Positions 5,577-53,940 of a stretch of 64,000 nt of DNA are shown piece by piece. The stretch spans positions 224,001 to 288,000 of the forward strand of contig CAWAWS010000007.1 in the NCBI GenBank assembly GCA_963785725.1. Direction: 5' to 3'. This stretch comes from an uncultured delta proteobacterium. Lineage in GTDB: Bacteria > Myxococcota_A > Polyangia > Palsa-1104. The first letter of the stretch is position 1. Every line of letters begins with the position of its first letter. The translations under genes were made by a program, and so were the position numbers. The notes under the pieces are model-generated. The model worked only from the letters and a program-made list of their open reading frames with translations, ran no database searches and was not told the origin of the DNA.

Positions 5577-5580
<4 letters not shown>
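5212..5580 (-). CDS. Stand-alone PilZ domain protein (myxobacterial TIGR02266-like)
   Basis: RQIPR (RxxxR), DISSTG, GVFI...PLPVGTRV, GEVVR..GMGVAF; GTGA overlap with rng stop. Confidence 0.85.
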
Positions 5581-7146
<1,566 letters not shown>

Positions 7147-7310
7147 GTTTCATCCAATCTCTAGAAGCAGAGTCTATGCAAAAAGTTTCGCGCCCCATCG
7201 TGAATCAGGACTCGGATGTCAGAGCGATCGGAGGGCGCAACCGTGATCGCCCTATTCGGGTAACACGTTAAGCCGCGTCGAACAAGCGTTTTACCGTCTT
7301 CGCCGTAGGG

Positions 7311-7326
7311 TGGCACATGCGTTGCT
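7311..7326 (+). promoter_or_regulatory. sigma54 (-24/-12) promoter
   Basis: TGGCACATGCGTTGCT matches TGGCAC-N5-TTGCW with exact GG/GC spacing. Confidence 0.72.
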
Positions 7327-7336
7327 CTACACCCTG

Positions 7337-7501
7337 GCAATTGCAGCTTCGTTCGGGCGTTATTCTCGACTAACTCCGCCCGGGCGTAAGCGAATTCTTA
7401 GCCGCAGTCGCGTAGCAGCAACCTGCGATCTATTTCCTAGTTTGCTTTCTAGTTTGGGAGCCCTGGCGGGTCGGACCACTCGCCGGGGCTCACTCATTTT
7501 T
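7337..7501 (+). ncRNA. Candidate structured small RNA
   Basis: No ATG between sigma54 promoter and terminator; stem-loops at ~7347-7391, ~7408-7428 and 7458-7491. Confidence 0.5.
7458..7501 (+). terminator. Rho-independent terminator-like hairpin
   Basis: GAGCCCTGGCG...CGCCGGGGCTC followed by ACTCATTTTT. Confidence 0.6.
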
Positions 7502-7544
7502 GGGGCTCGCGTTTGTGCCGCGGCTTGATAAGGTCCGCGGCCAC

Positions 7545-8513
7545 ATGCGAATCCTTCTGACTGGCGCGACCGGCTTTGTGGGCTCGCACGTGGCGCGGGC
7601 ATTGGTGGCGGCGGGGCATCAGGTTCGCGCGCTGGCGCGGCCGACGTCTTCGCGGGCGCTGCTCGACGACGTGCCCGAGCTCGAGTGGGTGACCGGCGAC
7701 GTCATGGACTCGCCGTCGCTGACGGCGGCCGTGCGCGATCGCGAGGCGGTGGTGCACGCGGCGGCGGTCGTCGGCTTCTCGCCGCGCGCGGCCGAGCGGC
7801 AGCGCGCCATCAACGTCGAAGGCACGCGCCGCCTCATCGACGCGGCCAAAGCGGCGGGCGTGCAGCGCTTCGTGCACACGTCGTCGGTGTCGGCGGTCGG
7901 CAAGACGCCCGAAGGCTCGATCTCCGACGAGACGGCGCGCTACGACTGGCCGCCGGGCATGCCCTACAACGAGACCAAGCGCGACTCCGAGCGGCTGGTG
8001 CAGAAGACCGAAGGGCTGACGACGATCTGCTTGAGCCCGGCCTTGGTGTTCGGCCCCGGCGACGTCTTCAAGCGCACGCTGGGCCTGTTTCGGCTGGTGA
8101 AGTGGGGCCTATTGCCGGTCGTGCCGCCGGGCGGAACGACGATCTGCGACGTGCGCGACGTGGCCGAAGCGCACGTGAGCGCGCTGACGCAGGGAGAATC
8201 GGGCCAGCGCTACATTCTCGGCGGTCCGCACCTGACGTTCCGCCAGCTGGCGACGACGGTGGCGGAAGTGACCGGCGGGGCGCGGCCGTTGGCGGCGTTG
8301 CCGGCGAGCGTCGTGCACGCCGTCGAGGTGCCGCTGGCGGCGATCGGGCGCTTCTTGCCGCTGCCCGTCGGCGTCGGCACGCTCGAATATCTGACGAACT
8401 TCGGCTATTACGCGTCGGCGAAGGCGGAAGCGGCGCTCGGCTATCGCACGCGCGCCGCCGCCGAGACGCTCGCCGATTCCGCGCGCTGGTACGGCGCGCA
8501 AGGCGTGCTGTAA
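7545..8513 (+). CDS. NAD-dependent epimerase/dehydratase (extended SDR, HpnA/dihydroflavonol reductase-like)
   Basis: TGATGFVG, HAAA, HTSS, YNETK (YxxxK). Confidence 0.88.
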   Translation: MRILLTGATGFVGSHVARALVAAGHQVRALARPTSSRALLDDVPELEWVTGDVMDSPSLTAAVRDREAVVHAAAVVGFSPRAAERQRAINVEGTRRLIDAAKAAGVQRFVHTSSVSAVGKTPEGSISDETARYDWPPGMPYNETKRDSERLVQKTEGLTTICLSPALVFGPGDVFKRTLGLFRLVKWGLLPVVPPGGTTICDVRDVAEAHVSALTQGESGQRYILGGPHLTFRQLATTVAEVTGGARPLAALPASVVHAVEVPLAAIGRFLPLPVGVGTLEYLTNFGYYASAKAEAALGYRTRAAAETLADSARWYGAQGVL

Positions 8514-13632: not shown

Positions 13633-14260
13633 TCGTCGGCCGCTCCGTCGAGGGGCGCGCCATCGAGGCGGTCGACCTCGGCTCCGGCGACGTGGGCGCG
13701 CTCGTCTTCGGCGCCATCCACGGCGACGAGCCGGGCGCGGCCGAGCTGTGCCACCGCTTCGTCAATCGGTTGCGGCGCGGGTCGCCGCCGGCGCGGACGA
13801 TCGTCGTGCCCGTCGCCAACCCCGACGGGCTCGTGCGCGCGACCAAGAACAACGCCCACGACGTCGATCTCAACCGCAATTTCCCGGCGCAGAACTGGGT
13901 GCGCGAGCATAAGCCGGGCTACGATCCGGGCGCGCAGCCGCTGTCGGAGCCGGAGTCGCAGGCGCTGGCCGCGCTCATCGAACGCCTACAGCCGCGCGTG
14001 CTCGTGGCCGTGCATCAGCCGCTGCACTGCGTGAACTGGGACGGTCCGGGGCAGGCGCTGGCCGAGGAGATGGCGCGCTTGTCGGGCTATCCCGCCGTCG
14101 CCAGCGTCGGCTATCCGACGCCGGGCTCGTTCGGGTCGCGCTACGGCGTCGACGAGCAGCGCGTCGTCATCACGCTCGAGCTGCCGCGCCCGGTGCTCGA
14201 CGCCGATTGGGAGACGTGCCAGGCCGCGCTCCTCTACGCGGCCGCTTATCGCGCCGGACC

Positions 14261-14264
<4 letters not shown>
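13629..14264 (+). CDS. mpaA: M14 zinc carboxypeptidase, murein peptide amidase A-like
   Basis: GRSVEGR, IHGDE, NPDG, VDLNRNFP, SEPES, GYPTPGSFG, ITLEL; GTGA overlap. Confidence 0.8.

Positions 14265-15646
<1,382 letters not shown>

Positions 15647-52518: not shown

Positions 52519-53940
<1,422 letters not shown>

Follow-up and report, generated by a model that had tools for sequence, protein, structure and literature searches.

A predicted, conserved sigma54-type small RNA gene divergent from the RNase E/G gene in a myxobacterial class

Does the short interval between an RNase gene and an epimerase gene of an uncultured delta proteobacterium hold a small RNA gene of its own and, if so, what might this RNA do? 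The interval lies in a stretch of 64,000 nucleotides (contig CAWAWS010000007.1, positions 224,001 to 288,000; here called the window), for which the original prediction had proposed a stand-alone, sigma54-dependent and intrinsically terminated RNA. The exact -24/-12 element named there, TGGCAC-ATGCG-TTGCT, is present on the plus strand at 7311–7326 and is conserved in 48 homologs. TGGCAC-N5-TTGCW occurs a single time in the window, compared to 0.03 occurrences expected from shuffles, and 54 of the 60 sites of this pattern in the genome fall outside predicted genes, which according to our own gene calls make up about 81% of the genome. From a predicted +1 near 7337, a non-coding RNA of about 166 nt would extend to 7502 on the same strand. 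As had been stated for some 160 nt, there is no ATG between this +1 and the terminator. The inner reading frames of the predicted RNA show no conservation among homologs, and an 80-aa frame on the minus strand across it was discarded as it is interrupted in relatives by frame shifts, gaps or stops. The gene is present as a single copy in the assembly.

As a whole, the RNA folds with a z-score of -2.5 (5 of 200 shuffles were equally good). Hairpin 1 (7346–7391) contains the 14-bp stem of the original prediction, with 7346–7359 pairing to 7377–7391 within the minimum-energy fold. By itself it reaches only z -1.4. Its conserved core, GGGCG-YUA-loop-UAMNNC-CGCCC, was found in 30 copies in 28 of 48 RNAs, against 0.7% in shuffles; besides the GGGCG/CGCCC stem it has an inner loop of the 1-by-4 type and two U-A pairs that never vary. 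One 348-nt RNA (L027, G015:C264:25664-25844) carries three copies in tandem. Covariation, suggested at the outset as a check, is indeed seen for hairpin 1: among 24 aligned copies both sides change at five of nine pairs, and the 22 cells with both-side changes are reached by 0 of 500 shuffles and are above the slid controls, where it should be noted that the copies were picked for pairing and the test therefore leans towards structure. A model of this hairpin returned 16 hits in 14 of 141 genomes, mostly training sequences and all at the locus divergent from rng. Hairpin 2 (7403–7427), conserved within the genus only, also exists, but not in the proposed pairing TCGCGTAG/CTGCGA, as relatives keep the register that closes the loop GUAGCA. 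After a U-rich stretch (7431–7457) the RNA ends, as foreseen, with a GC-rich hairpin and a U tail (7458–7501). The stem of this intrinsic terminator (7458–7491) has a z-score of -4.7 and shows compensatory changes at four pairs in one relative. The RNA length in the 48 homologs ranges from 90 to 424 nt, with 13 terminators placed by hand.

Rfam was searched over 6500–8500 with E-values up to 10 and gave no match over the element; 13 homolog loci gave none at the gathering score. The RNA thus belongs to no Rfam family found, and a literature search, mainly among freely readable papers, yielded no description of it. Three metatranscriptome runs shared 5–6% of words; their contigs gave no cover over 7305–7652 and are uninformative for this locus.

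A search by DNA found the region in four of four congeners. Within the order, 31 of 33 readable genomes have the unit of promoter, RNA and terminator upstream of rng. The two exceptions are G009 (80% complete, rpoN present) and the reduced genome G018 (2.3 Mb, 97% complete), from which rpoN and the element are jointly absent. G018 has furthermore lost RapZ and possesses two CsrA genes. Beyond the order, the 20 best rng matches were opened (39 weaker ones were left unopened). The unit was found in 13 of them, belonging to seven families, and was absent beside rng at six f13 loci and one f60 locus; one locus is truncated by a contig end. Of 80 titled genome records, six have the promoter and enhancer upstream of rng, five of them titled Polyangia or Myxococcales and one Proteobacteria only; no Geobacteraceae or other deltaproteobacterial record of this set has the two together. 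In a metagenome scan, four of 119 stretches contained true homologs, of which three were used. Viral matches to the hairpin core were dismissed as chance (81 matches, of which five had a longer stem; promoter and stem never occurred in the same match). Since kin are not independent, all these counts are descriptions rather than tests. Promoter, enhancer, hairpin and terminator are nevertheless conserved across families, so that a lack of conservation in relatives, named at the outset as an argument against the gene, was not observed.

The next gene on the plus strand codes for an NAD-dependent epimerase/dehydratase (7545–8513) and lies outside the unit. It directly follows the RNA in the window, at three of five congener loci and in two other genera, as would be expected if the RNA were no more than a 5' UTR or an attenuator belonging to the epimerase gene, or else a by-product of a promoter whose job is the repression of rng. 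We consider this very improbable. In many relatives the epimerase gene is replaced or has other genes between it and the RNA, and of the 38 homologs whose downstream gene could be classified, 28 have it in convergent orientation (a further 10 were unclassified), which rules out a 5' UTR role for the family. Moreover, the covarying hairpin, together with the strand-specific repeats described below, argues for selection on the RNA itself. An extended -10-like element, TGnTAAGGT at 7526–7534, is located 11 nt ahead of the epimerase start and suggests a separate short-leader promoter for this gene. Judged by its sequence, the window thus very likely holds a real and conserved small RNA gene of the sigma54 type, predicted to belong to a family absent from Rfam, and the idea of a stand-alone gene is supported by the variable and mostly convergent gene downstream, by the conservation of its elements in different families and by the loss of both rpoN and the element in G018.

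On its other side the RNA gene is divergent from rng (5577–7146, minus strand), assigned to the RNase E/G family by Pfam and NCBIfam and, with a single tblastn locus, the only gene of this family in the assembly. Relative to three congeners, rng is split by a one-base insertion near 6390–6406, and its open frames comprise 521–617 aa in 10 family relatives. The rpoN gene of the same assembly is likewise split by a frameshift (G000:C20:359480-359960, G000 being the window's own genome). With both genes split and rng intact in relatives, the two frameshifts are probably assembly errors.

Two palindromes, both within the predicted rng leader, form a putative enhancer. Site 1 (7177–7190) is an imperfect palindrome of the form TG(A/C)A-N6-T(G/T)CR; site 2 (7208–7221), the predicted activator site, has the form TGAC-N6-GTCA (here GGAC-TCGGAT-GTCA). 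In 42 of 48 homologs their centres are separated by 30–32 bp (26–37 being the range searched), which we liken to the three-turn spacing known for the NtrC sites at glnAp2. Site 1 scores 9 or more in 23 of 48 homologs on this side of site 2, and in one of 48 on the mirror side. The spacing between the sites is fixed and the distance to the rng start varies from 4 to 58 nt. Since site 1 keeps its distance to site 2 rather than to the start codon, we do not prefer to read it as a U-tract like that of Synechocystis rne, which serves in RNase autoregulation (PMC10989929). From site 2 to the promoter, the distances form 10 clusters with a period of 10.7–11 bp (R 0.74–0.86; Rayleigh p about 0.005 at 10.7, for 32 loci, a mis-picked site at L043 being omitted and the period chosen after scanning).

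Between enhancer and sigma54 promoter lies a predicted sigma70-type promoter of rng (7257–7285, minus strand; -35 TTGTTC, 17 bp, extended -10 TGnTA), which is present in 44 of 48 homologs. Of 18 genomes without the RNA gene, 11 retain its -10 part at a distance of 13–41 nt to the start of rng. A tentative IHF-like box (7280–7292) overlaps the rng -35 element; scored against the IHF consensus, it has three mismatches here and one to four in homologs. Since the predicted rng leader contains both palindromes and the loop would enclose the promoter of rng, activation of the RNA would be expected to hinder, and so to lower, rng transcription.

The combination of site 2 and sigma54 promoter is not confined to the vicinity of rng. 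In its strict form the pattern was found in 56 of 201 genomes of the class, compared to 0 for the reversed control; the window's own genome fails it. Forty-nine such loci were opened. Of these, 25 are the RNA divergent from rng, three are repeat RNAs elsewhere, five precede a CRP-family gene, and 16 mostly precede exported-looking proteins or are unclear. One of the latter is located directly behind an FHA-GAF activator gene; the palindrome may therefore serve a family of activators. The three repeat RNAs elsewhere (L355, L375, L377) combine promoter, site 2 and repeats without the conserved hairpin. Searching with nothing but the repeat pattern led to two further loci, both in family f21 (L498, L501), and these have site 2 as well as a terminator. 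Altogether, members with site 2, promoter and repeats but no rng nearby occur in families f4, f13, f15 and f21. A search with promoter plus repeats as pattern gave six matches against five in its control and is unusable as a count, hence only opened loci were used. The CRP-family gene at the five loci mentioned (L361-L364, L366; three congeners and two other families) lies between thiG and an alanine racemase gene, and in G000 this place retains the promoter, not the palindrome. Intergenic CTTGAC...GTCAA repeat arrays occur several times in G000 (contigs C4, C14, C16 and C29). Another observation concerns a gene (L502, G000:C7:826706-827407) whose product has an FHA-like domain at its C-terminus and a very conserved domain of 50 aa at its N-terminus; of 61 genomes of the class, 56 have this gene.

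The two sigma54 activators announced for the window are indeed encoded there, at 14207–15646 and 52519–53940, the nearest one 7 kb from the RNA. Of the two, only the former is found near the locus in some relatives. It stays there in five of 14, along with its whole gene block, and this linkage does not single it out as the activator of the RNA.

What the RNA bodies share throughout the family is, by word counts, the repeated word RCUURR/UAGYUU. In 32 dereplicated RNAs RCUURR occurs 54 times against 14.5 in shuffles (10 on the reverse strand), and UAGYUU, which is also strand-specific, 26 times against 4.7, with z-scores of 9–11. In 20 held-out RNAs, which were not used in finding the repeat, 36 occurrences compare to 8.6. 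The copy number varies from 0 to 6 per RNA, the spacing is variable, the flanks are poorly conserved, and the words are located largely in linkers and the tail. Their positions are predicted to be unpaired at about the same rate as the rest (0.445 versus 0.43), while YUAR positions reach 0.57 versus 0.42. GGA is depleted (49 versus 67 expected). The RNA of the window contains no exact RCUURR. It has the genus form UAGUUUG twice within its U-rich stretch; the tandem word of the original prediction (CUAGUUUG) was thus confirmed, as CTAGTTTG at 7437–7444 and 7449–7456. The five closest relatives have one copy of CTAGTTTG each, so that the second copy represents an 11-nt insertion in the genome of the window.

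In the UTRs of this genome the word shows no strand bias (upstream, 100 sense versus 101 antisense; downstream, 52 versus 53), hence no mRNA target set is visible. In five of five genomes of the genus, an outer-membrane-protein-like gene has GCUUAG/GCUUGG words in its 3' UTR, immediately after the stop codon (L285, G000:C16:257138-257195, minus strand, and L326-L329; not in G010). Possibly this cluster is a natural site of the same factor, or part of a 3'-derived RNA. A comparable cluster lies behind a lipoprotein-like gene (G000:C7 near 807090), and towards the end of the same contig there are AT-rich repeat arrays of the GGCTTA/TTAGG type (near 929400-929800, minus strand). The leader of ihfA has three words in the window's genome; they are not kept at 39 other loci, and ihfA was rejected as a target.

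Comparison of the homologous sequences brings out the promoter, the paired and phased palindromes, the hairpin, the repeats and the independence from the downstream gene. We favour, with a probability of roughly 0.5, that the RNA acts as a sigma54-induced decoy which binds several copies of an RNA-binding protein. An enhancer-binding protein would occupy the two palindromes and loop to the sigma54 polymerase, the signal-induced RNA would accumulate and titrate the protein off its mRNA sites, and since activation would lower rng transcription, the RNA would go up while the nuclease goes down. The variable copy number, the loose flanks and the survival of the words without the hairpin favour a protein-binding word over a seed. 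Further support comes from the triplication of hairpin 1 in G015, from the doubling of its own word in the window's genome, from the joint occurrence of promoter, site 2 and repeats at loci remote from rng, and from the pairing searches described below, in which no conserved target emerged. Multi-site or decoy RNAs are known in CsrB/C, CrcZ and GlmY (PMC13501541). As to the partner, Hfq was not found in five of five genomes tested, nor CsrA in G000 (88% complete) or G049. RRM proteins exist in 42 of 42 genomes; they were rejected as partner, the leaders of RRM genes being without word clusters. RapZ is present in four of five genomes tested and absent in the one without the RNA gene. However, RapZ adjoins rpoN and its loss together with rpoN would be expected anyway. 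Apart from the missing Hfq and CsrA, several points weigh against the decoy: the words are predicted to be no more exposed than other positions, they lack a strand bias in the UTRs, the RNA of the window has no exact RCUURR, and in NrsZ repeated words of a sigma54 RNA can act by pairing (PMC4253122).

Less probable is a base-pairing regulator with redundant seeds, the repeated words or a processed module of which would pair with mRNA sites. The model for this is NrsZ, which is driven by RpoN, has repeated stem-loops varying in number and needs a loop word for its function (PMC4253122); Pxr is believed to act without Hfq (PMC5684412). In some lineages a module with CUCCUCC would pair with ribosome-binding sites. 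This word occurs 20 times in the 32 RNAs against 0.6 expected, although it is absent from the RNA of the window and from most of its order. In several families (L048-L050, L258, L260-L269, L275) an extra module consists of such CUCCUCC runs and, behind them, a hairpin formed by CACACCGG/CCGGUGUG; it is anti-Shine-Dalgarno-like and faintly resembles the C-rich part of Pxr. The predicted pairings themselves speak against such a role: the tails of the RNAs pair with the start region of rng no better than shuffles (one of 32 at z -2 or lower), and the best partner of the window's tail, an FHA-domain gene (-31.9 versus -27.6 to -30.5 shuffled), holds in one of 20 genome pairs, namely the one used to pick it, the whole-genome search having been made in the window's genome only. 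For the U-rich segment, originally considered a possible seed, no conserved target was found; we rather see in it one of several repeated sites whose number varies.

The neighbouring nuclease itself could be the partner. The repeats would then be cutting or binding sites for RNase E/G, and the RNA an abundant decoy substrate induced by an activator that blocks rng, two effects that would jointly slow the decay of mRNA. The linkage to rng in many families, the position of the enhancer within its leader and the fact that rng is the sole RNase E/G gene would all suit this idea, yet overlapping promoter elements alone could account for the linkage, and at least four families have members of the RNA family that possess this enhancer and the repeats but are not neighbours of rng. 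The mycobacterial RNase E motif RR/CNU (PMC10641625) accommodates AG-CUU, GG-CUU and GA-CUU, and RRCNU is enriched in held-out RNAs (101 versus 62); this motif overlaps the enriched word and hence gives no independent evidence, and being a mycobacterial preference it may not be that of the enzyme here. For RN/WUU, the motif of Salmonella, there is no enrichment (94 versus 95). RNase E of Salmonella cuts right behind stop codons (PMC10503654), and the 3' UTR with words at this very position in all five genomes of the genus would agree with a cleavage site. On balance we hold the nuclease to be an unlikely partner. Equally doubtful is the two-armed switch to which it would lead, in which an activator in the rng leader shuts transcription of the nuclease and at the same time induces, from the opposite strand, an RNA of cleavage sites that ties up the enzyme.

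CrcZ is sigma54-driven, and GlmY has a sigma54 promoter. With CrcZ and CsrB/CsrC (PMC13501541) the family shares many copies of one short word per RNA. Their words, however, are A-rich CA motifs or GGA, whereas the repeats here are U-rich and GGA is depleted, and their partners Hfq and CsrA were those not found in the five genomes, and in G000 and G049, respectively. GlmY is, in the same source, a decoy for RapZ, an adaptor of RNase E, and thus a decoy RNA tied to RNase E action; there is no Rfam match to GlmY/GlmZ here and no GlmZ-like twin of the hairpin in the genomes searched. NrsZ of Pseudomonas is similar in its dependence on RpoN and an activator and in repeated modules that vary in number among species. 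It differs in repeating ACAGGCAG in its loops and in being processed into modules (PMC4253122), and it has no sequence or Rfam match here.

In design the RNA is comparable to Pxr (RF01812) of Myxococcus xanthus and the Cystobacterineae, likewise myxobacterial, with a predicted sigma54 promoter, an upstream enhancer, several stem-loops, an intrinsic terminator and no Hfq (PMC5684412, PMC5568312, PMC10217877). As had been anticipated, there is no sequence match: RF01812 remained unmatched over 6500–8500 and at 13 homolog loci. Pxr has 108 nt and, judged from primers (PMC5568312), a C-run in its first hairpin, and sits directly downstream of pxrR/nla19, whereas the RNA of the window has YUA..UAM hairpins and RCUURR repeats in its family, no C-run, and is flanked by rng, which it faces, and the epimerase gene. 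With a similar design but failing in sequence, loop and synteny, the RNA is not Pxr. Given the C-rich module in some relatives, a distant part may be shared. RF01812 was found in 0 of 151 genomes of a phylum sample and a primer-derived Pxr motif in 0 of 401. A positive control was lacking in these searches, and the genome-wide ones with RF01812 covered the candidates only in part, so that they permit no conclusion on Myxococcus itself.

In the literature searched, Pxr is the sole characterised myxobacterial small RNA. The locus described here would add to it a sigma54 RNA family that is deeply conserved, spread over many families of a myxobacterial class and marked by a sharp repeated word. 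The repeat RNA could be used as bait for an RNA-binding regulator in a group without Hfq and often without CsrA, and the defined enhancer as a handle for finding the activator. Furthermore, the arrangement makes it possible to test whether sigma54 signalling is coupled to the amount of the main endoribonuclease. If the two-armed switch were true, it would represent a dedicated RNA inhibitor of RNase E/G, and a signal would control how strongly bulk mRNA decay is braked in myxobacteria.
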